A stretch of DNA of 64,000 bases from Stegostoma tigrinum. Lineage: Eukaryota. Both the position numbers and the translations under genes were made by a program. The first letter of the stretch is position 1, and the number at the start of each line of letters is the position of its first letter. Below are positions 12,200 to 60,558 of this stretch, in pieces. The notes beneath the pieces were generated by a model that saw nothing but the letters and a program-made list of their open reading frames with translations, had not been told where the DNA came from and did no database searches. The stretch lies in contig NC_081369.1 of NCBI RefSeq assembly GCF_030684315.1, forward strand, positions 45,491,598 through 45,555,597, read 5' to 3'.

Positions 12200-13460
12200 T
12201 TTTCTCTTAGATATGACCATAAATTGTCATTAAACCTGCAGACAAAGGTAGTATTATTGTGTGGTGAATCAATCTCTAATCAGTGCAGGCCAAATGCCAA
12301 TTATCTCCTGCCTCGCTCTGGATCATGATTCCATTAATAAACCTCAGGCCATTGTTTTCAGGACAATCACTGGTTTCATCTCGAGAGATCTTCCTCCATG
12401 GCATTGGACTTCATCATGTCCAAAGAATCAAATGACTTCTTCCAGCTCCTTCCCAATACTCACAAACATGACTGCTCTAATAGACCTACTGTTTCAGCTG
12501 TCCCTGCATCAATGGTTTCAATTAATTTCCACTTACTTTTTTACACTCGAGCTGTCTGTTCCCACCTACATCTATGACTCATCCAATGTCCTCTTTTTGT
12601 CTAATTATTTCCAATTTCCTGACCCTCGATGTCCAGTTTCTATACAACTCCATCCCCTAAGGGATACTGAGAGCTCTCCATGGCTTTCTTCAATGAAGAC
12701 TCAACCAGTTCCATCCACCACCACCCTCTTATGCCTGACTGAAGTTCTTCTCACATTGAGAGATCTGTCTTTTAAATGCATTAACTTTCTTCAAATAAAA
12801 GATGTTGCAACAACTGAATGAATCTTTTTTGAGGAAAATGTGTAAAATGTCTTGTTCCTGTCCTAAACAGGTCCCTTCCCTCACCTCTTTTTCCAGCACA
12901 AGTAATTGGTGCTATTAACCGACATTGCTTCCAATTTCCATTCCTTTCCTACCTTCACAAGGTTGATTCACGATCCTACCTTCCTTTCTTTGACTTCTTT
13001 TCCATTTCTGGAGACTGAATATCATCAAACAATTCACTATAAGCCCACTGACTCCCACAGCTGCCTCATCTACACCTACTCACTGATAGTAGGAACTGCA
13101 GATGCTGGAGAATCTGAGTTAACAAGGTGTAGAGCTGAATGAACACAGCAGGCCAAGCAGCATCAAAGGAGCAGGAAAGTTGACGTTTCGGGCCAAGACC
13201 CTTCTTGAGAACTGCAACTCTCTTGTATCTCTCTCCCACTGCAACTCTCGTACTATTCCTGAAGGGTCTAGGCCCAAAAGCTTTCCTGATCTCTGATGCT
13301 GCTTGGCCTGCTGTGTTCATCCAGCTCTACAGCTTGTTATCTCTACACTTACTCATAGCCTGCTTCCACAGATTTCATTCCTTTCATTAATTTCTCTGCC
13401 TCAGCTACATTTGTTCTGAAGATTCAAATTTCCATATCGGCACCTTTGACATGCCTTCCT
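12200..13460 (+). mobile_element. Degenerate Penelope-like retroelement RT fragment
   Basis: Peptides such as LDHD, PSTTTLLCLTEVLLTL and IHYKPTDSHSCL parallel the element at 43080-45790; many stops and frameshifts. Confidence 0.75.
13083..13342. mobile_element. Fold-back Penelope-derived miniature element nested in the older PLE fragment
   Basis: Inverted arms (gaacacagcaggccaagcagcatca ... tgatgctgcttggcctgctgtgttc), flanked by ctacac(c/t)tactca at 13070-13082 and 13343-13355. Confidence 0.75.
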
Positions 13461-13594
13461 GAAATGTCAATTGTTAATGCAGCCTGTAATATTAAATGTA
13501 GTGAAGCAGAGTGTCACATAACATCTGAAAACCTGAACTGTTTGCACTTTATGTATCAAATTAGAACAGTCTGTTACAGGAATAGAATGTTACA

Positions 13595-14240
13595 CATAGA
13601 ACATATAACAGTACAGCATAGGAACAGATTCTTTGGCTTATATCTGTGCTGACCATGAATCTATTCTAAAATAATCCCCTCTGCCTGCACGTAGTGCATA
13701 TCCCTCTATTGTCTGCCTGTTCACGAATCTATCTAAATACCTCTTAAATCTTTCTAACATACCTGCTTCTACATCTCCTCCAGCAGTATGTCCCAGACAC
13801 CTACTAATGTTTGTGCTAAAGCTTGCCTTGCACAGCTCCATTAAACTTTCTCCCACTCACCATAAACCTATAGCCCCCAGTTTTTGACATTTCCATCCTG
13901 AGAAAGAGACTCCAACTATACACCTATCTATGCCTTTCAGAATTTTATATATTTCTATCAGATCACCTTTTAGCCTCCATCACTCTGTCGCGAAAACAAT
14001 CCAAGTTTGTCCAACTTCTCCTTATAGCTTATACACTCCAATGCAAGCAACATCCTGGTAAACCTCTTTTATGCACCCTCTCCAAAGCCTCCAAATCCTT
14101 CTTACAGTGTGGTGACCAGAACTGTGGACAGTACTCCAGTTGTGGCTTAACATCTTATACAGCTGCAACATGACTTCCCAACTTTTATACACAATGCCCC
14201 AATTTATGAAAGCAACAGTCCGAATGCCTTCTTTATCACC
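13595..14240 (-). mobile_element. CR1-type LINE 3' fragment
   Basis: Minus-strand peptide LERFKRYLDRFVNRQTIEGY resembling the CR1 ORF2 C-terminus; short tandem tail (catagaacat). Confidence 0.75.
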
Positions 14241-15112
14241 TCTTATAAAGTGCTTTTTAAAAAAAATTTAGGATTAAGTGAGATGATCCATTGTTTTGTG
14301 CAAAAGAAGTTTGGAGAAACTTTTGGTTATTTGAGAGGTAAACAGTGACACTGGGACATAAGCCAAAAAATATTTTTTCCAATAATTGATACTTAAGCTA
14401 AATGAGTAAATTTTAGTGAGATACTGACCTGGTCTGTTATGAAGAACAGACTGTGCAGAACAGAAACTGCTTTATTACTCATGGTCATTACAGCCAACAT
14501 AAAATTGAATTAAATAATATTTGTAAAATAAAGTCAGGTTTTGGGGATACAATATATAATTCCAACTCAAGAAGCAGCAAGAATGTATTTTATTGTTTTA
14601 ATATTTACATTAACAAATAAGTACTTTAAATACAAATAGTAGAAGAAATTTAACAAATGCCATGTTTCTTATTGATTTCTGGAGATTATTTGCATATAAA
14701 ATGCGTACATTCCAAAAGAGCTTTGAAATGTACCTATGATATGAAAGTCACCGGCAGAACTACTTCTGGATGTAAAGTAAATTCTTGTAGTCAGGCAGCA
14801 TCTATAAAGAAAATAAAATATTAATGTTTCATTGTAATCTGAGATTGCAAACAAACAGTTTAAGGGGGAAGTAAAGTCACCACAGTCTTGCCAGACCATA
14901 GAGCTGCTCTTTCATTCGAGAGAGAGGAGAGACAGAATAGGAGCTAGTTTGATCGGAAGTCACCACACTTCAGATGAGGGGGTAGGTTGCGGAGGAGAAT
15001 CCCTTACAGTAATCTCAGCTAGTGCAGGAATTGAACTGTTGGTGTTGCTCTGCATTATAAACCAGCCATCCAGCTAACCGATCATTAATCACAAAAAACA
15101 ACTGTTAACTAA

Positions 15113-15211
15113 TTTTTTCTGAAGAAGAGTCGAGATCCAAAATGTCAGCTTTCCTGCTGCTCTGATGCTGCTCGGCCTGCTGTGTTTATCCAGCTCTACA
15201 TCCTGTTATCT
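15113..15211 (+). mobile_element. Short Penelope terminal-repeat fragment
   Basis: Shared terminal-repeat sequence with a decayed hammerhead core; near-perfect direct repeats ctgtt(a/c)actaa at 15102-15112 and 15212-15222. Confidence 0.6.
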
Positions 15212-15314
15212 CTGTTCACTAACTGAATGTGCACACAGTGTTATAGTCAACTGGTTTCATGCACGTATTTTGTGGCCATAAATAAATACTTTAAGGTGGA
15301 CTACCATTTTGGAG

Positions 15315-15540
15315 CAAAATAAGAACTGGAAGAACTGCAGCTGCTGTGAATCAGAGACAAAAACAGAAATTGCTGGTGAAGTTCAGGTCTGGCAGCATCT
15401 GTGGAGGGAATCAGAATCAATGTTTTGGGTCAAGTGATCCTGTTTGAGGAAAGGTCACTCGACCCGGAACATTAAGTCTGATTGTCTACACAGATGCTGC
15501 CAGACCTGCTCAATTTTTCCAGCAATTTCTATCTTTGTTG
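15315..15540. mobile_element. Fold-back Penelope-derived miniature element (second family)
   Basis: Inverted arms aggtctggcagcatctgtg / cacagatgctgccagacct around a decayed TGAGGA...gacccggaac core. Confidence 0.7.
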
Positions 15541-16637
15541 ACCATTTGCAGCACTTCTCTAGCACTGTATATTTCTAAAACTCAGCTAATTACTCAACTC
15601 CTGAGAGGGCAGTCGGGTCTTTAATTGTACATGTTACAGTTAGTGAATTAGAATATATGCAGATTTTTTTTGAATTATATGAATTACATCCAACTCTGAT
15701 GTTTTATGCAAACTATTTTGTTAATTGCAAAACATCTAGATTAAAATCAGCCTCAATTAAGTTTTAGCAAAAACTTTCCACGGCCAAAGTAGGTGTGTCC
15801 TGGTGTAAAGGGCTCCAAGCTTTGGTCAGGACACCAGGGGATAAGGTCAGTCTCCTGACTGAAGAAACAGATGCCTAGTGGTGAGAGGGCAGGGCATGAC
15901 TGGGGCAGGCTCTAAGAAGGTCTGTCTTGATCCTCTGGGACTGAGCTTCAGTAATTTTAGACATTGATAAACTCTCTCACCCTGACCTGTCACACCCTCA
16001 CCACACCTAATGGCCTCATGTCAGTTTCATAATGTCCCAAAAAATGCCAAGTCCTCTAATATATCAATACCATCTCTATGCCCACATGCCTGCTACTCAT
16101 ACCGCTTTGCCACCTCATGCCCCACTGCCACTCCCTTTATCCACTCATACACCCAAGCTACCTCATACTATATGCCACTCCCATAGCCATTCAACCAGTA
16201 CTCACCATGGGAAACCTCAGAAGCCAAATGGAGATAAAAGATAATAAACTTCTAACACATTTGTACAGTTCTCATTCATGCATTTGATAGCAAAAAAACT
16301 CCCATTCAGCACATAAATCTCAAGTGCTTATTTTCTTATAAAAGCAAACAAATTTCTACTTAGACCCTACAAAGATAATTAATCCTTTCATAACCCCTTT
16401 AAACTCAGTCACACTGAGATAACTGAAGCTTTTGAAACTCAACCAAGCATTCCTATAAAATCTTCATGAAATGCCAATGAATATCTCTATTGAAACTGCA
16501 CGGGATGGTATTCCTTTTACTAACCTCTATCAAATAGCATGTCAATAAAAGCTATCAGTTTTTTTAAGCTCTCACCAACAGTCTCAGTTTATTTCCTTCT
16601 ATGTTTAAGAACAAAAGACTTAGAAAAACTTCAGATT

Positions 16638-24185: not shown

Positions 24186-24238
24186 AGATAATAAAATGTG
24201 AGGCTGGACGAACAGCATCTGCAGTTCCCATTATCTCT
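24186..24238. mobile_element. 53-bp collapsed Penelope-derived insertion
   Basis: Only the outer tips of the terminal-repeat arms, flanked by gatacatggctacct at 24171-24185 and 24239-24253. Confidence 0.8.
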
Positions 24239-26461: not shown

Positions 26462-26575
26462 AGATAATGGGAACTGCAGATGCTGGAGAATCCAAGATAA
26501 CAAAGTGTGGAGCTGGATGAACACAGCAGGCCCCGCAGCATCTCAGGAGCACAAAAGCTGACGTTTCGGGCCTAG
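26462..26575 (-). mobile_element. Penelope terminal-repeat fragment with 15-bp flanking direct repeat
   Basis: gagataatgggaactgcagatgctggagaatcc... flanked by accctaatggttcag at 26447-26461 and 26576-26590. Confidence 0.82.
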
Positions 26576-26966
26576 ACCCTAATGGTTCAGTTGGTTCTCA
26601 AACAATGAACAACTTCAAAATTGTCAGAACTACATTCTGCTAAAGTGATGGGTAACTTTTGGTTGCGAACTGCAGCTAGGTATGTGTCATTGGTCCTTCG
26701 CTGGTTGGTTGTCCTAGATACTTTGGTTTAATGACCCTTGGGACTGAGTGCAAACAGATGTCCCCTTGCTTGTACAAAATTCTCAGCAACACAATGGACA
26801 TAAATAAGCAACTTACAGACGAAAGTGCAGATTTCCACAGGTTGCTTAAAAAAACATCAATGGTCAGAAGTAAAAATTGTACGTGGAACAAAAGCAGGGA
26901 AGAATTTAAAATTAAACTGCAGCACAATTTTTTAAAAAATTAACTTTGTGCCCACTGAAGACTAAC

Positions 26967-27016: not shown

Positions 27017-27059
27017 GACGACCAAAACAAACAAAAGCCTAATGTGCGGCTATGAACCA

Positions 27060-27350: not shown

Positions 27351-27553
27351 TTAGCTGGGGTTGTCAGGCTTTAGTTTTGACCTGGACACGGATGCAACAG
27401 CGTTAGCCATAGTGGGAAGTAAATATATGAGGGTGTGGAGTAAATGAGGGGAGAGGAGTAAATCAGGGGTGTTGGGGCGGGAAGGAAAGTAAGAGGGTAG
27501 TGAGAAGTGGGATTGGTAAATGTGGGGGCAAGTAAATAAAGGGGGTAAGGGTA

Positions 27554-27662
27554 GAGATAATGGGAACTGCAGATGCTGGAGAATCCGAGATAACAAAGTG
27601 TGGAGCTGGATGAACACAGCAGGCCAAGGAGCATCTCAGGAGCACAAAAGCTGATGTTTCGA
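27554..27662 (-). mobile_element. Penelope terminal-repeat fragment in CHMP1A intron 1
   Basis: Same gagataatgggaactgcagatgctggagaatcc... unit. Confidence 0.8.
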
Positions 27663-27969
27663 GGGTGGATGGGATGTGGGTGATTAGCTGGAAGTGAAGC
27701 AGAACAGGGGACCCTCATCTGTCCCTGTGCACCAGGTACATGTAGAAGTGAAGAGGTCACCCCTGATTAGGGCCCTAAGTGGAGGTGTTTGATACATACT
27801 AGCAAAGGGGTATGGCTTAAAGGGATTCAAGTGAAAAGGAATAGCTTACATTTGTAAAATTGCTTTTGTTTCCTGTCTGCTTCACAGCTAATGAGTTGCA
27901 TTTGAAGGGTAGACAATGTTTACTTGTTAGTTTGTGAAGAGAGAAGATAGAAAGCGGGACATAACAACA

Positions 27970-28066
27970 CCAGCGCTTCATCAGAGGCTGACTGATGATG
28001 TTACCTAGAATGGTGACGAAATGTCTGAAAACTAACCTTCGAGCTCAGCGAGCAAACTCACATCCA
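27970..28066 (+). ncRNA. Hammerhead-ribozyme-like motif in a third Penelope-type terminal fragment (CHMP1A intron 1, sense)
   Basis: CTGATGA (27992-27998), stem GTTACC-tagaat-GGTGAC, GAAA (28018-28021), TGTC. Confidence 0.55.
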
Positions 28067-35504: not shown

Positions 35505-36735
35505 AACACAGAAGTTTAGTAGCAAAAGTAAACCACTTAGCCATTTAATAAGATCATTGCTATTTGAACATTGCACCTTCCCTGTTAACAAAGTGTGGAG
35601 CTGGATGAACACAGCAGGCCAAGCAGCATCTTAGGAGCACAAAAGCTGAATTGGGATGGAGAGGATATAAAACAGAGGCATCCATCTTGGAGATAGATGA
35701 AGGGTCTAGGCCCGAAACGTCAGCTTTTGTGCTCCTAAGATGCTGCTTGGCCTCCTGTGCCCATCCAGCTCCACGCTTTGTTATCTCGGATTATCCAGCA
35801 TCTGCAGTTCCCATTACCGCTGCGCCTTCCCTCTTGGCTTAACCTTTCACTGCCATGCCTATCAAGAATCTATATGCCTATCTGCCTTTAAAATTATTCA
35901 AAAACCCTGCTTCTCATCATCTGTGTCTTAAATGGGCTACCCTTTATTTACAACCAGCCAACACCAGCTCTTTTCACATACACCCTGTCAAGACCCTGCA
36001 GGATTTTGTATTTCGATCAAGTTGCCACTTTCTTTCCTAAACTTGACCCTATCCTGAGCAATCTTTCCTCCTAATACAGCCCACCCCAGGTATTAGTCTA
36101 CTACATCTTCTGTGAACTGTGACCAACATGCTTTTTTGGTCTCCTTATTTAAGGAAGGCTGTAACTTTGCAGTACTTCGGGCGCGGTGTCATCAATGCCC
36201 TGAATAACTGAAGCATAATCTCTCTAGTCTTGCATTCAGTTCCCCTCACAATAAGCAATAGTATTCTGTTGGCTTTCCAAACGACTTGCTGTACCTGCAC
36301 ACAAATCTTTTATGATTCATGCACGAATATACCCAAATCCCTCTGCATTTTAAAAGCACTGCAACCTCCTTACAATTTAAATAATTTTTTGCCAAAATGT
36401 ATAACTGTCATCTTCCCACAGTATACTTCATTTGACATAACCTTTTCATTCACGGAAGCTCTCTTAATCCCTTTGCAGTGCCCATATGTTATTTTCACAA
36501 ATTACCTCCCTCGTCTATCTTTTGTCATCTTCAAATTTAACAACTGGACCTTTTGGTCCCGTCAGCCAAGTCAGTTATAAAAATCTCTGAGACACACCAT
36601 ACGTTACACGTTGCCAACCAGAGCATGGCCCACTTGTGCCTATTTCCTGCTTTCTGTTAGTTAACTGATGTTCAATCCATGTTAGTATGTTACCTTCTCA
36701 TACTTTGAGTTTTTATTGTCCACAATAACATTTGT
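35505..36735 (-). mobile_element. Old CR1-type LINE fragment in CHMP1A intron 6, interrupted by a Penelope-derived element
   Basis: Degenerate CR1 RT/C-terminal remnants; nested element at 35584-35820 flanked by tgc(a/g)ccttccct (35572-35583, 35821-35832). Confidence 0.7.
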
Positions 36736-42019: not shown

Positions 42020-45000
42020 AAAAATTGAGAGAACTGCAGATGCTGTAAATCTCAAACAAAAATAGAGACTGCTGGAAAAGCTGAACAGGCCTGGCAGCAT
42101 CTGTGAGCAGAAATCAGAGTTAACGTTTTGGGTCCAATGAGCCTTCATGAGAAGCTCCTCTGCTGATTGGCCTGCTGTGTTCATCCAGCTCTACACCTTG
42201 ATATCTCAAAGCTAGGAAAATGTCAGTTTATATGCAGAAGATTGGGTGGAGGGAAGGAGTCAGGAGTAAACGATAGGTGGGGAGGAGGGGTAAGGATTAA
42301 ACAATGAGTGGGGATATAGCCCAAAGAGAGAGAGAGGAACAGTTAGACAAAGGTTTGGATAACGATCTGTCCAGTAGGTTGAATAGCTATTCATGGGAAC
42401 AAAAACAAAAATTATTTGAAAAGCTCAGCAATTCTGGCAGCATCTATGAAGAAATTCAGAGTTAACGTGTCAGGTCCAGTAACCGTTCCTCAGAACACTT
42501 AATGGGGCTGTTGGTAGCTCACAACAGGTAGTGTGGAATGACAGACTGTGATGACAAGGCCTGGTGTGTGGAGTTGGGGGCTAGGACATGGGAGTGTTCA
42601 GGCCCTAAAATTATTGAATTCGATATTGAGTCTGGAGAGCTGCAGGGTCCCCAGGTGGAAAATGAGGTGTATTTTCACTGTAGCAATCCAGAGATACAGC
42701 TGTTGGCCAGGGAATAGGGTGGTATGTTAAAGTGGCAAACAACTGGAAGCTCGGGGTCTTTTTTGTAAGCAGAATATAGATGTTCTACAAAGCAGTCACC
42801 CAGTTTACCCCCAGTTTCCCCAATGTAGAAGACACCACATTGTGAGCAGCAAATATAGTAGTCAAGGTTGTATGAAGTGCAGGTAAAGTGCTGCATCACC
42901 TGGAAGGTATGTTTGGGCCCTTAGCTAGTGAGGAGGGAGAAAGTAACAGGGCAGGTGTTACACCTTCGGCAGTTGCAGGGGAAGGAGCTGTGGGGCTGAG
43001 GGATGGTGTTGTGAATGAAGGAAGTGTGGACCAGCGTGTCTTGGAGGGAAACAGTCCCTGTGGAAGGGACCTTTTCCTTTCAGGCATCAAGGCATACACG
43101 ATGTAACAACTCGGGGATAACCACAGCCGTCTGTAAACTTCCTCTTCCCTTTCCTCTGACTCCATCTCCTCCCTCAATTCCACCTCCTGTCATGTATTGA
43201 ATATCTCCTAATCTTCTGCTCTTTGATGTAGAACATTCTGTATTCAGCAAAGGTCTCAGCTTTATCTCTCTGCATCCCCATCTTAATGAATTTTGGGCAC
43301 GACATGACATCAAACTCTTCTTCAGTCGTCTTTGCCTCCATGCCCATTTCTTTGGACAAGATCATCCTGCGGTCCAACAGACCCCTTTGCCCATCACCCA
43401 CACTCTCCCTCCACCGTGACCCCTCCCACTGGGCTTTTACCTGCACTCAACCTGTTCATTGACATGACATTGGTCACCTCAATATCTCTGCAACCCCACC
43501 ACCACACAATCCAACCTATCTCTCTCCAAATTGACTGCACGCCAAGCACTTAGATCTAAGCCTGACTGTGTCATTAAGCCAATCGATGAGGGTGGCACTG
43601 TTGTAGTCTGGTGCACTGACTCTACGTTGTGGAGGCTGAGTACCAGCTCTCAGATACCTCCCCCCTCCTATCTTCCCCTGGATCATGACCCCACCATGGA
43701 AGATCAGGCCATTGTATCAACTACAGTAATTTCATCTGGTGATCTCCACCCCACCCCCAACCTCACGTAATGGCTCGAAGCTGAAAGTTCCCCAACCCTT
43801 TGCAGGTCGCTTCTACCTCCTTCGGAAAATTGACAAACAGCACTGCCCATTGTTTCGGTCTGCTCCTGTCCCACAGAACACATCTCTTCCTATCTTGACT
43901 TGATGTTTGCTCCATAGTCCAGTCCCTGCCCACTTACATCTGCGATTCCTCTGACACTTTATGCCAGTTTTGGAATTTCCAGTTTGCAGGCTCTAGCAGC
44001 CTCCTGTTTACCTTGGATGTTCAATCCCTTTACACTTCCATTCCCCAATCAGGATAGTTTCAGGACTCTCCACTTCTTTCTGGAGCAAAGGCCTGAACTG
44101 GCCCCATCCTCTGCCCCCCCCCCCCCCCCCCCCGCCACCTTCCTCTGCTTGGCTGAGCTCCTCCTCACCTTGAACAACTTTTAACTCCTCTCATTTTCTT
44201 CAGGATAGTGGGGTGGCTATAGGTTCTCACATGGGCCTCAGTTATGCCTGTCTCTTTGTGGGGTACGTGGAACAATCCTTATTCCAGTCCTATTCCTGCT
44301 CCCAGCCACAACTCTTTCTCTGATACATCAATGACCTTGTCAATACTGCTTCCCTCTCTCATCCAGAATTGGAAAAGTTCATCGATTTCGCTTCCAATTT
44401 CCACCCCACGCACATTTCCACCTGGGCTCTCTCTGACTCCTCCCTTCCCTTCCTTGACATTTCTGTTTCCATTTCTGGAGACAGACTGGCTACTAATATC
44501 CACTATAAACACACTGACTCCCACAGCTACTGGACTATACATCCTTGCACCCTGCTTCTTGTAAAGTCTCCATTCTGTTTTCCCAGTTCTTCCATCACCA
44601 TTCTTGCATATGTTCAGATGAGGCCAACTTCGACAAGGGACCCTTTGAAATGTCCATCTTCTTCATCAACTGGGGTTTTCCCAGCACCGTTGTTGACAGG
44701 GCCCTCAACCAGGTCCAAACTATCTCCCACACTTCTGCCCTTACCCCTTCTCTTCCGTCACACAAGAGTGATCCATCATCAGACACCATTTCCGCCACCT
44801 CCCGCAAGATGCCATCACTAGACCACACATTTCCCTCTCCTCCCTTGTCCACCTTCCACAGGGACTGTTCTCTCTGGGACACCCTGTCCATTTTTCCTTC
44901 ACTCCTCAGCCCCACAGCTCCTTCCCCTGCAACCGCCAGAGGTGTAACACCTGCCCAATTACCACCTCCCTCACCACTATCTAAGGGGCCAAACATACCT

Positions 45001-45790
45001 TCCAGGTGAAGCAACGCTTTACCTGCACTTCACAGAATCTAGTCTACTACATTCGCTGCTCACAATGCGGTCTCCTCTACACTGTGGAAACGAGGTGTAG
45101 ACTGGCTGACTGCTTCAGAGAACATCTACGTTCTGATCGCGAAAAAGATCCTGAGCGTCCAGTAACCTATCACTTTATCACACCGCCATGTTCCCTGGCC
45201 ATCATCTCTGCCTCAGGCTTGCTGCAGTGTTTCAGAGAACATCTACGTTCTGATCGCGAAAAAGATCCTGAGCGTCCAGTAACCTATCACTTTATCACAC
45301 CGCCATGTTCCCTGGCCATCATCTCTGCCTCAGGCTTGCTGCAGTGTTCAGCTTGTGCTGACTTTCACTCGGAGGAACAACACCTCATTTTGCACTTGGG
45401 GATCCTACAGCCCTCTGGATTCAATATTTACTTCAATAATTTTAGGGCCTAAACTCTCCCATATCTTAGCCCCCTATCCTACACACCAGGCTTCGTTATC
45501 ACATAGTCTGCCATTAAACACTACCAATTGTTATTTTAACAGGTATTTACCCTCCGAGCCAGAACGTTATCCATTCCTTTGTCAATTCAACTGTTCTCTC
45601 ACTTTAGGCCCTACCCCACCTATCATTTCCTTCTTCCACCTCAACCCTATTTTCTGCATATAAACCAACATTTTCCTAGCTGATATCAGTTCTGAGGAAG
45701 GGTCACTGGACCTGAAACGTTAACTCTGATTTCTCTTCACGGATGTTACCAGACCTGCTGAGCTTTTCCAGCAATGTCCGTTATTGTTTC
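42020..45790 (+). mobile_element. Penelope-like retroelement (RT plus GIY-YIG) with inverted 5' copy of its 3' end and 14-bp TSD
   Basis: Frameshifted RT remnants (VIKPIDEGGTVVVW, GVAIGSHMGLSYACLFVG, SLPFLDISVSISGDRLATNIHYKHTDSHSY); GIY-YIG remnant FTCTSQNLVYYIRCSQCGLLY...RLADCFREHLRS; about 42200-43070 is an inverted homologue of about 44860-45790; tgctttgagatagt at 42006-42019 and 45791-45804. Confidence 0.9.
45688..45725 (+). ncRNA. Minimal type I hammerhead ribozyme motif in the Penelope 3' terminal repeat
   Basis: AGTT-CTGAGGA-A-GGGTC-ACTG-GACCT-GAAA-CG-TT^-AACT: stem I AGUU/AACU, 5-bp stem II, palindromic ACGU stem III. Confidence 0.7.
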
Positions 45791-46484
45791 TGCTTTGAGA
45801 TAGTGTTGAACTTCTTAAATGTTGTTGGAGCCATACTGACCCAGACAACAGGAGAGATTCAATTACACGCCTGACTTATAATTTGCAAACAATGAACAGA
45901 GTTTGGGAACCAGGAGGTGATTGGCTTGTCTCAGAATTGCCAACCTCTGTCTTGTTGTTATGATATATAAATAACTAGACCAATTGAGTTTATGGCTTTC
46001 TTTTTTGACTCTTTCACCTGATATGGGAATCACTGACTAGCATTTAGTGCCCATGGCATCCAACAACCACAGCCACTTTCCTTTGTGCGAGGTATGACTG
46101 TGACCACTGGTGGGTTTTCTGTCTCAATTTCCAAGGCCTTCAATTTTGCCAGAGTTCTGCCATGCCACACTTGGTCAAATGCTGTTTGATGTTGAGGATA
46201 GTAACTTTTACTTTTACCTCCACCTCTTGAGTTCAGCTCTAATGTCCATGCTTAAGCAAAAGTTTATAATAAGATCAAGTACTAAGTGTCTGTGAGCAGG
46301 GTATTACAGGGCAAGTGCCATCTGACAGCACTGTTAGCAACATCCTAAATCAATTTGCTGATGCTCGAGAGGATGCTGGTGCAGATTCGCTTGTCCTGGT
46401 CTTTGTGGGTAGGACATTTGTGCACATTTCCCACATTGTCGATAAATGCTGGTATTGTTGCTGCCCACAATAGCTTGGTAAGGG

Positions 46485-47103
46485 AACAAAATGTGAGGCT
46501 GGATGAACACACCAGGCCAAGCAGCATCTCAGGAGCACAAAAGCTGACATTTCGGGCCTAGACCCTTCATCAGAGAGGGGGATGGGGAGAGGGAACTGGA
46601 ATAAATAGGGAGAGAGGGGGAGGCGGACCGAAGATGGAGAGAAAACAGCCCAGTTCGTCCCCTCCCCCCACTGCACCACACAACCAGCCCAGCTCTTCCC
46701 CTCCACCCACTGCATCCCAAAACCAGTCCAACCCGTCTCTGCCTCCCTAACCTGTTCTTCCTCTCACCCATCCCTTCCTCCCACCCCAAGCCGCACCCCC
46801 ATCTACCTACTAACCTCATCCCACCTCCTTGACCTGTCCGTCTTCCCTGGACTGACCTATCCCCTCCCTACCTCCCCACCTATACTCTCTCCACCCATCT
46901 TCTTTTCTCTCCATCTTCGGTCCGCCTCCCCATCTCTCCCTATTTATTCCAGAACCCTCACCCCATCCCCTTCTCTGATGAAGGGTCTAGGCCCGAAACA
47001 TCAGCTTTTGTGCTCCTGAGATGCTGCTTGGCCTGCTGTGTTCATCCAGCCTCACATTTTGTTGTCTTGGATTCTCCAGCATCTGCAGTTCCCATTATCT
47101 CTG
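46485..47103. mobile_element. Penelope-derived fold-back element with long terminal inverted repeats
   Basis: About 160-bp inverted arms, each with a hammerhead-like core; atagcttggtaaggg at 46470-46484 and 47104-47118. Confidence 0.88.
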
Positions 47104-49480: not shown

Positions 49481-50091
49481 AGCTGACGTTTCGGACCTTG
49501 ACCTTTCATCAGAGAGGGGGATGGGGAGAGGGTTCTGAAATAAATAGGGAGAGAGGGGGAGGCGGACCGAAGATGGATAGAGGAGATGATAGGTGGAGAG
49601 GAGAGTATAGGTGGGGAGGTGGAGAGGAGAGTATAGGTGGGGAGGTGGGGAGGGGATAGGTCAGTTCAGGGAGGACGGACAGGTCAAGGAGGCGGGATGA
49701 GGTTAAAACCAGCCCAGCTCATCCCCGCCTCCCTAACCTGTTCTTCCTCTCATCTATCCCCTCCTCCCACCTCAAACCGCACCTCCATTTCCCACCTACC
49801 AACTTCATCCCGCCTCCTTGACCTGTCCGTCCTCCCTGGACTGACCTATCCCCTCCCTACCTCCCCACCTATACTCTCCTCTCCACCTATCTTCTCCTCT
49901 ATCCATCTTCGGTCCGCCTCCCCCCTCTCCCTATTTATTTCAGAACCCTCTCCCCATCCCCCTCTCTGATGAAGGGTCTAGGCCTGAAACGTCAGCTTTT
50001 GTGCTCCTGAAATGCTGCTTGGCCTGGTGTGTTCATCCAGCTTCACACTTTGTTATCTTGGATTCTTCAGCATCTGCAGTTCACATTACCT
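49481..50091. mobile_element. Penelope-derived fold-back element with 17-bp TSD
   Basis: About 200-bp inverted arms; core CTGATGA (49966-49972) ... GAAACGTC (49986-49993); ctttaactctatcctga at 49464-49480 and 50092-50108. Confidence 0.88.
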
Positions 50092-51464
50092 CTTTAACTC
50101 TATCCTGACTTTCATCAGCTGAATGCATTTAAATTTCACCAGCTGCCCAGGTGAATTTTAACCTGTTAGCTCACAAGTATTAGTCTTGATCACCAGGCCA
50201 GTGACATTACCACTAGCCCATTATCTCAGAAAGGAATTGTGTCTTTACATTGCAATTACATCATTACCGACCAGATTCATGGACAACAGTCGCAGCCCCC
50301 CCACCCCCTCCGCAAAGTACAGTCAAGGGAGTTGAGCTGGTGTTAAATGGCCTGACCAAAATGCATACAGTGCTAAACAGTTTATCAAGTTCCCTATCAG
50401 GGTTTTGTTAAAGAAAACACGTTCCCTCCCTCTCGATTCAAACATTTTTAATCCCTCCACACTGACTCATTTCCTTCAACTTATTAATTTTATACTTTGC
50501 AATAGCAGTACCAGGAGACATAATTTTATTGATCAACCTTACAGATAGATTAGTATTAAAATAATTTGCATACAAACTCCTAGAGTGACATGTACTTATT
50601 TATGGTAAAGCAACAACATCCTTTATTTTGCTCCAATAGCGTCCAGCGTGAAATTGGGCTCATTTTAATGGCTATGAAGCAATTATTATCGTTCACTCTG
50701 ACAATACTTCGTTAGGCCAAAGAACAAAATGACCTAAACTCTAATACATTCAAAGTTATAAAATATTGATGAGTTAGAATACTGTGAGTAGAACAGAATT
50801 CCAATCAAGTTGTTATTTGTTCCTAAATATTGCTTCACTGAGTATTGTGATTGATTTAAATGATATACAGAATAGGAAAGAAGTATGCATGATTTATTTA
50901 CAGGTGCTACACATTGGCTTATATCTATAGAATGTGATGTATGATCAATGTAATACCAGCAATGTCACTGAAATAAATATTACAGTTTAAATAGAGTGAT
51001 TGAGTGGAAGTGTCATCCTCACTTTCTAACGTTCAGATTCAAACTTAGAAATTCCATGGGCCATCCAGTGAACAGCCAACTAGTACTCTAATCTCATTTT
51101 TTTAAACCAAACTGCATTTATAGTGTGTGCCAATCAGGTCAGAGAAGTGTTCATTCACCTCTGACACAGTTGGAAGTCAGATGACTAATCGGCTCAATTA
51201 AAACTTTTTTGTTAGGTGCTTAATAGTCAGGAAAAATAGCAGTTTGATGAGATGTCAGTTTTGCAAGTTTGGTTATAATTCCTGCTTCACAGAACAATTT
51301 GAGGACACAGGTTAAAAATGGAGACAATAAATTAATTATTCAGATTTGTGGAAAGGAAATGACTACTTTCAATCTCGTTATTAGTGAATTTTGTGACTTT
51401 ATAAAACTTAGATACTGAGAATTCAGGTAAAATAAGTTAATACTTTGAAAATGTCAATTTTTTT

Positions 51465-52720
51465 GAATCATACAATATTATAAATTTACAACACAGAAGG
51501 AGACATTCTACTTATCATTTCAATATGGCTAGCAAGTTGCCATCCAGATTATATCCACTTTTCAGCTTTTTATTGTAGCCTTGAAGTGTATATCCAAACA
51601 CATTTTAAATTTTGTATACATTCAAATACATTTTAAATCTTACGAGTGATTCTGCCCTTAACATCTTTTCAAGTAGTGAGTTCTCACTAAATTTCTCTTC
51701 CCTTAATTTATGTCCCCAGTTAAGGACCCTGCTCTTTGAGGAATAGGGCCTTCTTATCCACTCTTTCAAAATCCTTAATTTTATACAATTCAGTTATGTC
51801 TCCTTCAGACCAACAAAACAACTCTGGGCCCATCCAGTCTTTCCCCATAAATAATATTGTTCAGTCCAGGCAGCATTCTCCTACATCTCCTCTGCATGCT
51901 TTCCAGTGCAATGATGTCATTCCTATATTGCGGTGATCAAAGCTTCAAGCCTAACTAGTGTTGTGTAGTTCCAGACTCATGTCTTGGTTCTTATATTCTC
52001 TGCCTCAGCTAATAAAGGCAAAGATCTGAGAACATGAACTCCAAGGGCCCTTTATACTGCTACTTTTTTCAGTATTCTACCGTTAATTATTGTCTCATTA
52101 GACTTTCCCAATTGCATCACCTCACCGTTCTCCAGATTTATCTCCATTTACTAATGTTCTACCCACCTGGCTTATCTTTTGTTTTTCTGTAGTCAACAGC
52201 TTTGTTCTTTATTGCCAACTTGTATATTGTTTGTAAACTTCTCAATCAACCACCTATATTTATATATAGCGAGAGATGTAGTACCAAGCCCTATGAAACC
52301 TAACTGGAAACAGCTTTCCACAGACAAGAACACCCATTGACAATCGCCTTTTGCTTACTACTTCACAGACAGTTTTGGATCCAACTTGCTACATTGTCCT
52401 GTATCCCATGCCTTTTTACGTTTGTGACTAATCAACCTTGTGGGAATGTATCAAAATCCTTGCTAAAATATGTGCATGACTTAATGAAATGCACAACCTT
52501 TATCAAAACTCATTGTTATATCTTCAAAGGGGTCAGTGGTGTTCGTCAAACATCACCTTTGCTTAATAAATACGTCCTGGTTAGTTTTGATTCGTTCACA
52601 ACATTTTAAATGACTTTATCCTGTCCCTCTGAATTTTTCCAGTTATTTTGCTATCACCAAGTTTATGATAACTGGACGACTTGGTCTATCCATTCCTAAA
52701 CAAATCTACAATGCTACCTG
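51465..52720 (-). mobile_element. Old CR1-type LINE fragment
   Basis: Minus-strand DFSKDFDTFPQG (decayed DFSKAFDKVPH) near 52440-52470 and a CR1-like 3' end. Confidence 0.7.
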
Positions 52721-52779
52721 TTCTAGATGGAAAGACTATATTCCATTTTTCCAGTTTCTACTCTTTTGTTGCATCTGTT

Positions 52780-53160
52780 CCAATTAAACTTTCTTTCACA
52801 ATGTTTAGGACATGCCTTCCTTTACCTTCAACCAAGGATCTCCCTCTCCCTGTTAAACGGGGCCCTCAGCACTGTCAAGAGATAATGGGAACTGCAGATG
52901 CTGGAGAATCCAAGATAACAAAGTGTGAAGCTGGATGAACACAGCAGGCCCCGCAGCATCTCAGGAGCACAAAAGCTGACGTTTCGGCTTTTGTGCTCCA
53001 AAGATGCTGCTTGGCCTGCTGTGTTCATCCAGCGCCACACTTGGTTACCTCAGCTCTGTCCATTCATTTTCCAAATTTCTGCTCTCAACGCTTCATTTAC
53101 CTCCCTGGACCACAATCGGGGTCACCCTCTCTTCACCAATTCATGGCTCAACCTTCGGAT
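52780..53160 (+). mobile_element. Penelope fragment with nested collapsed fold-back element (52877-53047)
   Basis: Terminal-repeat arms in inverted orientation, flanked by cctcagc(a/t)ctgtc at 52864-52876 and 53048-53060. Confidence 0.7.
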
Positions 53161-53899
53161 AAACGATGACTAGAGAAAAGACAGATTTATTCAATTCACA
53201 GAATTTTAAACTCCTCAGCAACTGGCATTTCCAGATCGGTAAACCGGTCACCGGTGGAGTCAGACGGGTTTCGGACTGAAACGTTCCCTGCTCCGGCGGA
53301 TGCTGTCCGACCTGCTGTGTTTTTCCAGCCCCACGTTTATTGACAGCAACATCTCAGTAATGTTGCTGCTGTAGGTGGACAGCTCAAAATGCTAACCGTT
53401 GTTCTGAGTAAGGCGAGGAATCTGACAGGTATCAATCTTTGTTACTTCAGGTTTCAGCTGGTGTGGGATGGTTCTGATCGGTTACACACACCTAGCTCCT
53501 TACTGACCCTGCACCAGAGAAACTGGTAAGTTACCTTTCTGGTTTTTCAGTGAGCCAGAGCTTATTACAAGCAATCGGACATAGAGTCATTTTATTTCAT
53601 TCAGTCACTGGGACATGTTGAGGGATCAGTCTGCCCACCAGCAAGGGATTGCAGCATATTTCTGTTAACATCCAGATCGAGTAATGTAGAAGAACACGGC
53701 GGGGTGGGTGGGAATTGAGCACTTGTGGTAATGTAGATAAATCACAGGGTCAGTGCAGAACCGCCCCATCGAGTCAATCGTTCCGGCACGCATTGCGAGG
53801 TTGTTCCAAAGTGAGTGTTGGGGTGTGCAGCAAACATGGTATTTACAGGAACACCTGCTCAAAAATAAAGCAAAACAAAACAAACGTGTGGCAGAAAAG

Positions 53900-54183
53900 T
53901 GAACGATTCTAGTCGTCCGATAATCTGTGGGCAGAAAGCACAAATTCTCATTGCGGACTGACGTCTGCTTTGATTTCAACTTTTTCTCCGTCGGCGGGAC
54001 AGTGAGCCAAACAGACTTCGCCACACCCCCCCCACCCCCCTCACCACCACACCCCGCGCGAAACTCGCCTCCTCGGTTCGACGAGTTGTACAAAAGGGAA
54101 GCGAGACAGACTTAAGAGAGAGAGAGAGTTGGTCAAGTACAGGCGCCGGAACAGCAGGGTCTGAGCCCTATTCTGCTGTCACC
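53900..54183 (+). promoter_or_regulatory. CpG-enriched BCO1 promoter / 5' UTR
   Basis: Raised CpG content, CACCC/C-rich boxes, TATA-like TACAAAA at 54089-54095. Confidence 0.45.
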
Positions 54184-54247
54184 ATGCAATCGCTGTTCAC
54201 AGGCAACAAAAGGGAATGTCCAGAACCCGTCAGAGCAGAAATTGAAG
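54184..54247 (+). CDS. BCO1: Beta-carotene 15,15'-oxygenase 1, coding exon 1
   Basis: accATG; MQSLFTGNKRECPEPVRAEIE, G|gtgaga. Confidence 0.9.
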
Positions 54248-55226
54248 GTGAGAAAGTATTGTGTATTACTATGTAACTAAGAACTGCGTGTGACTCGGTT
54301 TAGTGTTAACTGCTCGACGCTTCAACAAAAACAAATAAATGAGACAATGGGAATGATAAAGAGTTTCCTCTGCCAATTTGCCAGACTGGTAACGTGAAGA
54401 TCCCAGAGATGTTTTGATCAGGCGCTGAAATATTTATCCCGTGTTTGTTTACAGCAGTAGCGGCGTTTGCTGCTCTCTGGAAACCTCGTTCTACCGCAGG
54501 GCGCTGGGAGGTGGGAGCTGCTGCTGTGTTTAGTTTGTGAGTCCCGGTAGTGCTGAGGGCTGGAAGCTGTAGGATTAAGGTCCCACACCAGGCCAACTGC
54601 AGGGAGAAGCTCTGGAAGAAGCAGTTGTGCTTCTTTTCACATCGGTTGCATTTAGCCGGCACAAACATAACGCCTGGGTGAAACTGCATGATCAGCACGC
54701 GCATTGAAGAAGTTGGTCTCAGTTCCCTGTCACATTCGCATATTTTTTTCTAAAATAAAACAAGCCTGTAGGTTCCGCCTGAAAACAATATGCACGCACT
54801 GCTGCAACCATGTTATGCATTCTTATTTAATGAAAATATGCATGAATTTTGTTCTCCTTTCTGCCTGAACTGACGACGGTGACTCAGGTGAGTGTGCGAG
54901 GATTGGTGCCTGGGTATGTGCAGACTAGGTCGATTAGCCAAAGGTAAATGTAGATTTACAGCGATAGGGTAGTGAGGTGGGTAGGGTCGGTGTGGACTCG
55001 ATGGACCAAATAGCCTGCTTCTGCAGTGTGGAGGTTCTATGATCGTATTAGGAACATAAAGTATATGGTGGATTTTAAAGTTGCTACCTTGGGATGGATT
55101 TTATTTCCATGGGTGGCGCAGACTCTGCAAGTCCTTTGCTGCTTCACGTGAACATTGCATTAACATTGCATTGTTCTTCACAGCATAAAACGGATTTTAA
55201 CTGTTGTTTATTTTACGTTTAAATAG

Positions 55227-55355
55227 GTCACATTCCACAATGGCTGCAGGGGACACTCATTCGAAATGGACCAGGCATGCACAAAGTTGGTGAAACTGTC
55301 TACAATCATTGGTTTGACGGGATGGCCTTGTTGCATAGTTTCACATTTCAAAATG
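55227..55355 (+). CDS. BCO1: BCO1 exon 2
   Basis: GHIPQWLQGTLIRNGPGMHKVGETVYNHWFDGMALLHSFTFQN (RNGPG and HWFDG carotenoid-oxygenase motifs). Confidence 0.95.
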
Positions 55356-55957
55356 GTGAGTTAGTGTAGGACACTTTTCACCTCTTTCCAGACGAGGAAA
55401 TAATACTTATAAAGAATGTCAATATGACATTCCCTTCTTGGTTTGATATGCTATGCATTTTTCATCAAGCATGTAATCTGCAATCAAAATCAGTTTGAAC
55501 ATTATTTACAAATGACCTGTCAAACACAGTGAATAGAATAGAAATTTATTGTCATGTGTACTTTTACATGAAAAACTGAAATGTTTTATACGTCACCCAC
55601 CACAACACCTACATTAATGACAGAAGTCATACATAATAATTTTAAAGAGTAAAATTAAGATAAAATTCATCACAGTACAGTTAACATCTTAGTGGTAGGT
55701 TGTTTGGTCACACAGCTTTCACTCATTTTTAGTTTTGAAAGCCATTAAGCAGCTGATTAAGTGAGTGAGGATTCATGGGAATTAGTCCCTTTTCCTCAAA
55801 TACTTTCTCACAAAACTTCTATTCTCCTCTTAATGTATACAGTGTCCTTTAAAGTAAAGACTACCTAGAGGGGTTTTCAGTGCGGGTTTCATTTGGTGGC
55901 CCAGACACATTTAAAGTAGGATTTTGCTTCCATGTAGAGTGTTCTGCTGCTTTGAGA

Positions 55958-56910: not shown

Positions 56911-57233
56911 CATAGGAATATGAAATGCTGCCTCAAAATGAATTAGGGAGTGAAAATCATTCCAGCTACAGATAAACAAATACATAACTGACATTAATGT
57001 TATTGCATTAATCAGACACAGTGATTTCCAAATCTGAATTGGATGAACTTGCATTTGGAAGGAAGATCACTGGTGGCTAATGAATATAGTGCAGCTCCTA
57101 TAAAGCTGTAAGATACAACGCGAATAATCACCACACAATTCAGCTTCCAAGTTTCCTAGACAAGAATGGGTAATTGGAAATTGATTTCTACTAGCCACAG
57201 TGGTAACTAGCTTTTTTATATTCTTAAACCCAG

Positions 57234-57363
57234 GTGAGGTGTTCTACAGAAGTAAGTATCTTCGCAGCGATACTTACAAGTCTAACATAGAAGCTAACAG
57301 GATTGTGGTGTCAGAATTCGGCACAATGGCTTACCCAGATCCGTGCAAGAATATTTTTTCTAA
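57234..57363 (+). CDS. BCO1: BCO1 exon 3
   Basis: GEVFYRSKYLRSDTYKSNIEANRIVVSEFGTMAYPDPCKNIFSK (PDPCK motif). Confidence 0.96.
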
Positions 57364-57479
57364 GTAAGCATGAAGTGAGCTACTGATTGTTCCTATTTAC
57401 TTTGGTTAACAAATTGATCGTTGTCGCAGAATAATTGAAATTTGCAGCACAAAGTGAGGCAATCACGCCTGTTTGCAAT

Positions 57480-57677
57480 CAGAGATAATGGGAACTGCAG
57501 ATGCTGGAGAATCTGCGATAACAAAGTGTGGAGCTGGATGAACACAGCAGGCCAAGCAGCATCTTAGGAGCACTAAAGCTGACGTTTCAGGCCTGGACCC
57601 TTCATCAGAAAAATTTCTGATGAAGGGTCTAGGCCTGAAACATCAGCTTTTGTGCGCCTAAGATGCTGCTTGGCCCA
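57480..57677. mobile_element. Hairpin Penelope-derived element with 11-bp TSD in BCO1 intron 3
   Basis: cccttcatcagaaa-aa-tttctgatgaaggg centre; hammerhead-like cores back to back; ctgtttgcaat at 57469-57479 and 57678-57688. Confidence 0.88.
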
Positions 57678-60098
57678 CTGTTTGCAATGCCGACCCTTTC
57701 CTGGAGCAATCAAAAACTTATATTACTATTCTATAATATTCTTATAGCCTTCTACCTTTATTCGTTTCAAAATGAAGTCTGTTTCACCTGAAGGAAGTAT
57801 TAGGTTTCGTCTCAAGTCAGTTCCAGTGGCAAGCGCTCCATTTTCACAACAGACCACAGGCAAATGCCTTTGATTAGATTCCCTACAGTGTGGAAACAGG
57901 CCCTTCGGCCCAACAAGTCCACACTGAACTAAACTACTGTTTCTCACTTCCTAAGTAATGATTTTAACATGTCGCATTTTATCATCAACTTCCCAAATAG
58001 AGAAGCCAGTCTGACACGATTCACCCTATTAGAACTTTTTACAACTTAACAAACTTATATTGCATATATTATAGCCTTCTATTTTGCAGTGATAGTGGTA
58101 ATGGTTTCTCAAGTATCTCCTTAAACTAAAATGCCTCAATGGCTTTAATGCCTTTAATAGGAAAAAGTGCCCACAACTGTACACAGCACTCTAAAACTGT
58201 GATGTAACAACATTGTTATTTAAATTCATCATTACTTTATACCTCTTCCACTCCATGACCTTATTTATAAACCAATATTCAAGTTATGGCTTTACCTATC
58301 TACACTGGTATTTTTAAAAAAATAATTCATGGGAAGTGGACATTGATGATTGGGCCAGCATTTATTGTCCATCCCAGTTTCCCTTGAGAAGGTGACATTG
58401 AGCTGCCTTCTTGAACCACTCCACGAATTTAGGTAGACCCACAATGTTGTTAGGAAGGAAGTTTGTATTCCTAGACCTTTGCCCACCTAAACAAATAGTC
58501 TTGAGAATCCTTGTACCAAGTACAAATATCTATTCCTTGTTAATTTTCTTCCATACATTATCATTGAATGTCTCTGCACATGACATTGCATCATTTATTA
58601 TCTTATCCATTCCTTCCTTAATTATTTTATAATCATTTGCATTGTTTTATGAATCTTCTTCTCCTTTTGTAACATTAGCAAATTTGGAGACTTATTCCTT
58701 GCAGCCGCAATTATCTGGTCATACCAAGGACAGGTCTTAACCCATTATTGAAGATTCACCACTTCCTGTAGTTACAGCAAAACTCAGTGATCCTAATGTT
58801 TTATTTCTTGGCTGCCACGTTTGTGTCCTTGCATTTCCTCATATTCCATACACCTGAATTATTCAGATGGAATTATTAAAAATCTTCTGATAAGTTATAT
58901 TCAACACCTCTGCTGAGCACTTTTTATCTCTTGTTATGGAGAAGGGGAGGTTGAAGAAATTCCTGATACTCCCCATTATAGGTAACAAGTAACAATTTAT
59001 TTATTTAACTGTAATCTAACTGAACACATTAACAGAACTACTATCAAACCAAACAATTTCTCCCTAACTCCTAATTATTCCCTAACTGAACTAAATTCTA
59101 CTGGTGTGCTATTCCAATAAACTTAAGTCCCATATTTATAATCCAAGTAGTAAGAAAAAAAACTTAGTCAGTCAAAGTTGTCATTCTTCTGAAATGCCCT
59201 GCCTTCTTCACTGTCTCTCCAGTCATAAACGCCTTTCTTCTGCTGTTCTTCAATCATAAGCACTTTTCTTTCACTGATCCTGCTGTCAAGGATGTTCTCT
59301 CTATGAAGACCCTTAGTTAGAAGTGTTGTGGTATCTCTTATGGATAAGATGGTGCTTTCTTAGAGAGCTTAGTGATTTCTTGTGAGAACTAGGTATTTAT
59401 TTCTCAGATGGCAGTTCACTCTGACACTGATTTTCAAAAACCCTGTCCTCAATTACCTTGGATGACATATCAAATTTAAATTCAATTGTCTTTCAATCGC
59501 TAAGTGCTTGGTTTAAATTAATTGGCTGATTCCAGTTTGTTGCCAAAACATCAAACACACCTAAGATTTCCAATCACATAGCCAATTGATACAAGTTTCC
59601 ATTTTAGAACTGGCTGTACACCTTCAGCTATGTAGACACTTTCTTTTTCTGTATAAATCTCTAAGCTTAGAAAAGTAATTGATCTCTTAAAGAAATCACA
59701 TACTCTACAGAACTTCATAATACTATCCGATCTGTAATTTCTGTAATCTAGCTGGTAAATTCATAAAGCCCATGACTTTATTACAATTTTTGACAACCTC
59801 CCTGCTTCTAATTTATCTAGTCCCTTCATAATTTTACATGTTTCTATTAGAAAACTTCCCCTCCACCCCTGCTTCATTCGTCTAAGCCTTCAAAATCTTT
59901 ATTGCCTCTTTTCTGACTTCTTTCAACAACCCCTAGTACATATCAGTTGGGTCCAATAACATTTGCAGCTTAAGTTTCACCAACTTTGCAGAAACAATTG
60001 TTTTTGTACATTCAGCTGTATAAATTGTTTCATTGCACTTTGCCTCAAAATGGGAAACAAACACAACTATGTAACATGTCTTTGTTTTTATTTTACAG

Positions 60099-60246
60099 AG
60101 CAGTTTCCTATCTTGCAAATGTTATTCCTGATTTCACTGATAACTGTTTGATTAATATAATTAAATATGGTGAGGACTTCTTTGCTTCATCAGAGACCAA
60201 CTATATCAGAAGAATAGACCCTAGAACACTTGAAACATTGGAAAAG
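60099..60246 (+). CDS. BCO1: BCO1 exon 4
   Basis: AVSYLANVIPDFTDNCLINIIKYGEDFFASSETNYIRRIDPRTLETLEK. Confidence 0.96.
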
Positions 60247-60319
60247 GTGAGATTTATTGCAATTAAACTCTGTTGGGACTCTTATGGTTGACAGCTCATT
60301 GAACAATTGTGTTTACATG

Positions 60320-60558
60320 AGAACAAAAACAGGTTACTGGAAAAGCTCGACAGGTCTGGCAGCATCTGTGAAGGGAAAAGCAGAGTTAATGTTTCGGGTC
60401 CGTTGACTCTTCCTCAGAACTGCGATTCTGAGAAAAGGTCACCGGACCCGAAACTCTCTTTTCTCCTTCACAGACACTGCCAGACCTGCTGAGCTTTTCC
60501 AGCAGCTTTGTTTCTGTTCCTGATTTACAGCATTCACAATTCTTTCGTTTTTTTAATT
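60320..60558. mobile_element. Fold-back Penelope-derived element (second family) with 13-bp TSD in BCO1 intron 4
   Basis: Inverted arms around ctcagaac-tgcga-ttctgag; ttgtgtttacatg at 60307-60319 and 60559-60571. Confidence 0.85.

Follow-up and report, generated by a model that had tools for sequence, protein, structure and literature searches.

Inserts in the window and their source element

The stretch of 64,000 nucleotides of Stegostoma tigrinum analysed here (contig NC_081369.1, positions 45491598-45555597, within a 3.2-Gb genome), further referred to as the window, harbours short inserts that are ends of an abundant Penelope-like element, as well as part of an RPE65-family gene. It is proposed that the inserts are truncated copies of the element, produced by twin priming of reverse transcription on one capped RNA and possibly, on occasion, from a template cleaved by the hammerhead ribozyme of the element; the probability of this reading is put at roughly 0.7. 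Arm positions are counted from the first C of the hammerhead core CUGAUGA (position 0), with the predicted cut between +27 and +28. Arms ending near +127 are called tailed and those ending near +92 tail-less.

All nine inserts named in the original prediction are present and all nine are flanked by direct repeats, taken as target site duplications (TSDs), of 11-17 bp at eight sites; at 60320 the repeat spans 21 bp and includes 4 mismatches outside a core of 13 bp. The head-to-head form holds for eight of them, while 26462 consists of a single arm. They had been described as one family, but two are mixed, family A (8 sites) and family B (60320), and a family C copy is found at 27992. The insert at 13083..13343, of an older type of family A, joins a tailed arm (-2..+124, minus strand) to a tail-less arm (+5..+91, plus strand) within a TSD of 14 bp with 1 mismatch (13069-13082 / 13342-13355), and its central filler matches the start of the open reading frame (ORF) of the full element (+217..+283). 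The smallest insert, 24186..24238, is a non-overlapping twin-priming form in which a tail-less arm (+64..+95, minus) is joined to a tail-only arm (+103..+128, plus), with a TSD of 15 bp (24171-24185 / 24239-24253). A single tailed arm on the minus strand (+7..+127), with the core missing, makes up 26462..26580 (TSD 15 bp, 26447-26461 / 26576-26590). Between the tail-less (+26..+88) and tailed (+2..+127) arms of 35584..35820 (TSD 12 bp) lies a 50-bp filler (35648-35697) that is an inverted copy of host DNA about 735 bp upstream (34863-34912), which suggests a template jump onto nearby DNA. Two inserts belong to a long class, reaching beyond the fixed boundary near -4 that is described below: 46485..47103, with a tail-less arm of -72..+88, a tailed arm of -325..+127, a TSD of 15 bp and cores at 46573 (minus) and 46975 (plus), and 49481..50091, with a left arm ending at +32, a right arm of about -260..+127, a TSD of 17 bp and cores at 49512 (minus) and 49966 (plus). 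The core is also missing from 52877..53047 (tailed arm +18..+127, tail-less arm +26..+88, TSD 13 bp). Both arms of 57480..57677 (TSD 11 bp) start at about -4/-3, one being tailed and the other ending at +64. The family B insert 60320..60555 has arms of -5..+97 and -2..+131 and a core at 60417 (minus) with a stem I of 4 bp. The arm ends at +32 (49481) and +64 (57677) fall at neither priming site, despite clean TSDs.

Upstream extension of the arms bore out the predicted Penelope-like origin. This extension, analysed at 30 loci, is of very unequal length, and the longest ones reach an ORF with reverse transcriptase (RT), a C-X4-C-X2-C motif and GIY-YIG, in a unit of 3.6 kb. Two full-length copies, L226 and L227, were found by upstream walking, with hammerhead-to-hammerhead units of 3,616 and 3,587 bp. 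L226 has direct pseudo-long terminal repeats (pseudo-LTRs), and L227 direct as well as inverted ones, with the tail restricted to the inverted arm; both have TSDs of 13-14 bp and a broken ORF. RT and the C-terminal GIY-YIG are held together in a single frame of 557 amino acids. Pfam gave RVT_1 and GIY-YIG matches, both below cut-off, neighbours in the Atlas at 0.96 bear RT and GIY-YIG, and a PDB sequence search returned 0 matches. A GIY-YIG query taken from the window found 154,447 candidates in the genome. The features of endonuclease-positive (EN+) Penelope-like elements are all present: an ORF with RT and GIY-YIG, hammerhead-bearing pseudo-LTRs, a tail of 30-40 bp at one end and a TSD. The linker before GIY-YIG fits CX2-5CxxC, a feature common to Neptune and Nematis and reported to define this type (PMC8557442), and points to a Neptune/Nematis-type source element. 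At locus L011 (C15:77339999-77343132) both arms share a junction between ORF start and 3' region at about -87, and read as copies of one internally deleted template. No paper on this family, on Penelope twin priming or on capped-leader copies was found in searches of an open-access library; Repbase, Dfam and supplements may list the family.

Given the further copies in the window, the density is higher than the predicted one per 5 kb. A long broken family B copy (43589..45792, plus) retains remnants of RT and GIY-YIG, with 65-70% identity to family A, and carries a hammerhead on its 3' side, at 45692; a perfect 117-bp tandem duplication (45114-45348) lies within its broken GIY-YIG region. Single arms of family A were found at 15115..15213 (plus, older type, starting at -4, TSD 11 bp) and 27553..27661 (minus, tailed, +19..+127, no convincing TSD), a head-to-head family B copy with a weak TSD at 15330..15553, and the family C copy at 27945..28065 (plus, hammerhead at 27992). 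A head-to-head pair at 42020-42207 has arms that are B-like and A-like by appearance, with no convincing TSD, and additional copies lie at 19878, 42396 and 53263. No empty site was seen among the joints listed when contigs of four runs were compared with window positions 45900-55900.

Exons of the RPE65-family carotenoid oxygenase gene, which is presumably BCO1-like, were recognized in 4/147 frames, all on the plus strand (55262-55366, 57185-57364, 59974-60288 and 61277-61471). Because they fall between these exons, 57480 and 60320 are intronic; nothing of the kind was found for the other seven inserts, and the ORFs that were scanned from 11 to 55 kb of the window yielded no exon. Upstream of the first detected exon, a non-repeat stretch (54442-54726) is matched by a contig of another organism with 22 differences over about 285 bp, and is possibly a promoter or first exon. 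Positions 1-10613 are occupied by a degenerate, G-rich tandem array of 10.6 kb whose units measure about 7-24 bp.

Two outer ends and a fixed inner edge

Arms were collected from 27 blocks of 50 kb (1.35 Mb in total), at self-chosen round coordinates on large contigs. Arms ending before +55 were left out, and the statistics on outer and inner ends refer to 273 arms scoring at least 50; the genome-wide counts at -4 and -10 are exact matches for the young subfamily. About 202 insertions in the sample were assigned to family A, and 84 of these are head-to-head; the density is about 150/Mb, or about 130-150/Mb allowing for a few family B cross-matches, and extrapolation yields several hundred thousand copies of family A genome-wide. 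Total length of the head-to-head inserts ranges from 86 to 3,932 bp, with 63/84 below 250 bp. Arm lengths form a continuum that extends up to 2.7 kb, into the RT ORF. A short class with a fixed-start boundary accounts for about two thirds of the arms. TSDs (8-18 bp, mode 15) were found at 66/84 head-to-head pairs and at 2/229 mismatched flank pairs, in agreement with the prediction of separate insertions.

The outer ends of the arms cluster at +86..+99 (119 arms) and +120..+135 (111 arms), and TTATCT closes both sites. These ends are not the ribozyme cut, since they lie about 65 and about 100 nt past the cleavage site. A tailed arm is combined with a tail-less arm in 74/76 classifiable pairs (p=4e-20), and 8/84 pairs combine a tail-only arm with a body arm, such that the tailed arm breaks off close to where its partner starts. 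Family B displays the same two outer ends (about +96 and about +132), mostly the same pairing and the same inner edge. Both the one-each pairing and the tail-only/body pairs fit twin priming on one RNA, and by analogy the two sites match the two internal RT start sites used in vitro by a lizard element (PMC11167929).

The two arms of a pair were also compared with each other. Mismatch at diagnostic columns is 8.9% in 36 young pairs against 19.4% for shuffled partners, and 9.1% against 9.2% over all columns, while discordance of long and short class within a pair was observed 6 times and expected 29 times. A protein dimer with two RNAs, one per target strand, in which an asymmetric complex imposes the differing start sites, predicts neither this class agreement nor tailed arms that stop at the start of the partner. 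Such a dimer would need no displacement at overlapping arms, the lizard protein is a predicted dimer that extends both strands (PMC11167929), and the letters common to both arms could derive from one source locus; on balance it is regarded as quite unlikely.

The tail-less arm reaches further 5' in 33/74 pairs, by more than 10 nt and up to 2.8 kb, and the tailed arm in 25, so that simple fold-back copying is excluded. Palindromes at inverted junctions led to the proposal of self-priming in rotifer Penelope elements (PMC3846280), and the tail has been ascribed to endonuclease resolution (PMC8557442). Under self-priming, one cDNA, or an antisense template, would fold back and serve as its own template, endonuclease trimming yielding an optional tail, and the arms of the present inserts indeed mostly overlap and share letters, with palindromic joints being common. 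In those 33 pairs the tail-less arm was, however, not copied from the tailed one, the tail is not copyable from a tail-less arm, tail-only and body arms do occur as pairs, and the extra G at -4 discussed below indicates a capped sense template, which leaves self-priming very improbable.

At the inner side, 56 arms start at -8..-1 against 7 at -48..-9, and genome-wide 7,812 starts were counted at -4 against 63 at -10. The main inner end lies 4 nt upstream of the core. Since the two arms of a pair mostly belong to one class, long or short, -4 acts like an end of the template and not like a pause. A G stands directly before -4 in 82 of the first 100 listed starts, as counted by eye. TTG and TTA were compared because the partner arm contains neither, so that partner microhomology is avoided; before -4 their ratio is 168:25, at a background ratio of 1.0-1.3. 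In LINE-1 (L1) and SVA an untemplated 5' G has been read as reverse transcription of the cap (PMC4859970), and the start site and internal promoter of Penelope lie in the pseudo-LTR (PMC8557442). The extra G would accordingly be a cap signature, of a capped transcript starting at -4, and the short inserts, or minis, are likely internally primed copies of the mRNA 5' leader. One short arm extends 15 nt into the 5' untranslated region (UTR). A spliced exon as the source of the 5' edge was rejected, as there is no common sequence upstream of -4.

It is doubtful that the peak at -4, as well as the one at +28 treated below, represents RT pauses at RNA structure combined with microhomology joining rather than RNA ends. 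A pause at -4 should yield pairs of an edge arm and a long arm, of which 1/84 was seen, and the G excess remains where the partner is without the trinucleotide.

A fixed capped start is equally compatible with a short class that propagates itself as a non-autonomous family, like a short interspersed element (SINE) or a retrozyme, using an internal promoter from -4 and mobilised in trans. The Penelope promoter in the pseudo-LTR would suit such a family, and animal retrozymes have been proposed to be pseudo-LTR-derived (bioRxiv 10.64898/2026.07.22.740005). Neither diagnostic alleles of its own nor a fixed internal junction was found, at limited power: 61 short and 60 long young arms differ at one column (p=0.015, uncorrected), and junctions vary between copies. 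Furthermore, the filler of 13083 comes from the ORF start, so its template extended into the ORF, and head-to-head RNAs would form duplexes. A self-propagating short class is therefore held to be unlikely. The retrozyme-like nature that the original prediction assigned to the inserts is contradicted by the same lack of private alleles, by the continuous arm lengths and by the absence of tandem arrays among the named inserts; no head-to-tail array of ribozyme-complete units was found in the window.

Hammerhead ribozyme and the peak at +28

The arms carry, as had been suggested, a minimal type I hammerhead with the core, the extra base, G10.1-C11.1 and a palindromic, loopless ACGU stem III. A descriptor of core, stem II, GAAA, CG and U(C/U) gave 81 strict matches in 1.41 Mb and 0 in the reversed control. 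The motif is real, but the CUGAnGA letters are intact in only 4/9 named inserts (46485, 49481, 57480 and 60320), and 46485 is the sole named insert that passes the strict descriptor, with both of its arms, although the ACGU palindrome is decayed in each. Among young arms spanning the hammerhead the core is kept in 58/74 and core plus CG in 47. Families A, B and C retain the core, with variation at position 7 and H17, and compensatory pair types between them were found in both stems. The commonest pairs in stem II are G-C (A, B) and U-A (C) at pair 2, and U-G, U-A and A-U at pair 4; those in stem I are U-A (A, B) and A-U (C) at pair 1, and C-G, U-G and U-A at pair 2. This covariation is to be read with the caveat that the scan demanded 3/4 stem II pairs and that stem I of family A has just 2 bp. 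Family C, with a 6-bp stem II, the reversed stem I pair 1 and the same core, has 18 further matches in the sample. The Rfam comparison that had been proposed as a check gave no hammerhead match at E<=1, and only microRNA-like hairpins below the gathering score. A type III hammerhead, which would cut upstream of the core, was dismissed on visual inspection because there is no stem-loop there.

Hammerhead letters do lie on both strands, as predicted, but in the modelled folds of the head-to-head inserts 57480 and 60320 the core is buried in a long duplex. Long hairpins would indeed arise if the inserts are transcribed. Five of the nine named inserts lack the core letters; most inserts would be unable to form an active ribozyme, and it is unlikely that the genomic copies act as active ribozymes.

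Genome-wide starts at +26, +27, +28, +29 and +30 number 172, 469, 3,182, 407 and 492, and 441 were counted at +18 with a longer pattern; the +28 pattern permitted the native G at +25 and barred T there, and is not exactly parallel to the neighbouring ones. Before +28 G and A stand at 66:36, a count that includes some duplicated loci; the bias is much weaker than at -4, which is expected for an uncapped end. It is somewhat probable that this peak records self-cleavage in vivo for some templates, most templates being uncleaved, in line with PMC11167929. The predicted role of cleavage in setting the RNA end fails for the outer ends and may hold for a minority of inner ends (7/273 at +28, and the genome-wide peak).

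Several counts speak against such a cleavage record. Palindromic joining inflates the peak: of the first 100 listed +28 matches about 60 are palindromic AAAAGCTTTT joints (AGCT), many of them scored once per strand, and a further 9 show AGG microhomology. This leaves a clean excess of no more than about 2.5-3-fold, and in the sample the 7/273 arms at +28 are not distinct from +18 or +5. The family A monomer, with its 2-bp stem I, folds into a predicted inactive hairpin with its foot at +29. This hairpin foot, the palindromic AGCT and the G|CT sites in the partner arm would suit RT pausing; against pausing, a peak at +29 or +30 is missing, and the control AG site at +73 gives only 38 starts against 28 at +74 (non-palindromic joints only). 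On the side of a cleavage record, fold-backs at the ACGT palindrome 5 nt away number 100. A poorly designed GGCC fold-back control, with listed matches that are mostly point mutants, gave 7 (up to 20) of the first 100, or about 120-350 genome-wide. Short head-to-tail repeats with a spacing of 62-67 bp, of a coreless fragment starting at +28, were noticed at C53:16813528-16813753 and C4:123608253-123608401.

Proposed twin priming on a capped RNA

In the proposed mechanism the protein of the element would nick both target strands about 15 bp apart, and a single sense RNA would serve two primings of reverse transcription, at internal sites close to +127 and +92. The two cDNAs would be joined 5'-to-5' via microhomology or short fillers, the distal RT displacing the proximal cDNA or halting at it. 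The same priming sites presumably recur in the 5' pseudo-LTR, where the mRNA begins. Priming in the leader would copy about 130 nt and run off the capped end at -4, giving minis of 90-250 bp, while priming at the 3' copy would give the long class; some templates, it may be somewhat better than an even bet, had cleaved themselves, so that their copies begin at +28. The genomic minis are probably inert by-products. A more tentative reading, rated slightly below even, sees in this genome several hundred thousand frozen intermediates that show the Penelope cycle at base resolution. It comprises two fixed sites primed on one RNA, one for each target strand, a new SINE-sized class of inserts that copy the capped leader yet form no family of their own, and a one-base peak at the GUC site, which would be the first evidence in vivo that a minimal metazoan hammerhead cuts the RNA of its transposon.

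Other observations weigh against the proposed mechanism. The report on the lizard element (PMC11167929) describes shared start sites for the two strands in vitro and no RNA-seq read with its end at the cleavage site. Most pairs overlap, for which twin priming on one RNA needs putative strand displacement; in 8/84 pairs one of the arms stops outside both sites, and 2 pairs are of the tail/tail or none/none type. A TSD was found at only 22/100 single arms (control 2/198). Much of the raw G excess at -4 may stem from G|CT sites in the partner arm, and arms seldom continue beyond the tail into the 5' UTR, at least 5 matches being found in 4/52 short and 0/22 long arms.

Twin priming of L1 has a variable second priming site and yields non-overlapping arms, whereas here the second site is fixed, poly(A) is absent and the arms usually overlap. 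L1 5' inversions share the inverted 5' part, the TSD and the extra G at full-length 5' ends (PMC4859970). For the Penelope-like class truncation, an inverted 5' copy, a tail of 30-40 bp and minimal hammerheads have already been published (PMC8557442, PMC3846280, PMC4209133). The Neptune/Nematis EN+ elements described there agree in the single RT/CX2-5CxxC/GIY-YIG ORF, pseudo-LTRs, frequent 5' truncation, inverted 5' copy, one-end tail and TSDs (PMC8557442, PMC3846280). In these descriptions, however, the tail is optional and the inversion results from self-priming or endonuclease resolution, whereas in the present pairs a tailed arm meets a tail-less one almost without exception, and the short class with its fixed-start boundary makes up about two thirds of the arms; the rotifer examples given have TSDs of 8-10 bp, shorter than the mode of 15 bp found here (PMC8557442, PMC3846280).

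The green anole Poseidon element PAc resembles the present element in that two adjacent internal RT start sites bound the tail, both target strands are cut and extended, and the hammerhead lies upstream of the tail; cleavage is dispensable for its insertion (PMC11167929). PAc belongs to another clade, is reported without a strand difference in start site in vitro and without reads at the cleavage site, and has the first Met of the ORF inside the ribozyme, while here it follows the tail; capped-leader mini-copies are not described in the main text of PMC11167929. The metazoan minimal hammerheads of PMC4209133 share the core, the extra base after A9, G10.1-C11.1 and the palindromic loopless stem III, but in family A stem II is shorter (4-5 bp) and stem I has 2 bp. 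The same paper reports single motifs, and close pairs on opposite strands (100-700 bp), scattered genome-wide, and it proposed circular RNA templates, whereas the present inserts appear to stem mostly from uncleaved linear RNA (PMC4209133). Non-LTR retrozymes are likewise non-coding, derived from pseudo-LTRs and equipped with a type I hammerhead, but their definition asks for units in head-to-tail tandem, two or more consecutive ones holding a complete ribozyme, whereas the inserts studied here are single or head-to-head and mostly without an intact ribozyme (bioRxiv 10.64898/2026.07.22.740005).

The kind of element and its architecture are known, and what is new is what the insert ends appear to record, the capped-leader class and the one-each use of the priming sites, neither of which was found in the open-access library searched. 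Penelope-like elements are the retroelements closest to telomerase. The origin of their inverted repeats and one-sided tails and in vivo cutting by their hammerheads are stated as open questions in the sources cited (PMC8557442, PMC3846280, PMC11167929, PMC4209133). The counts favour twin priming on capped sense RNA over antisense self-priming and provide exact positions for the existing in vitro assay (-4, +28, +92 and +127). If true, twin use of two fixed sites explains the inverted pseudo-LTR and the one-sided tail. The same route may also have left many of the dispersed 'solo hammerheads' and 'monomeric retrozymes' of animal genomes behind as inert by-products.

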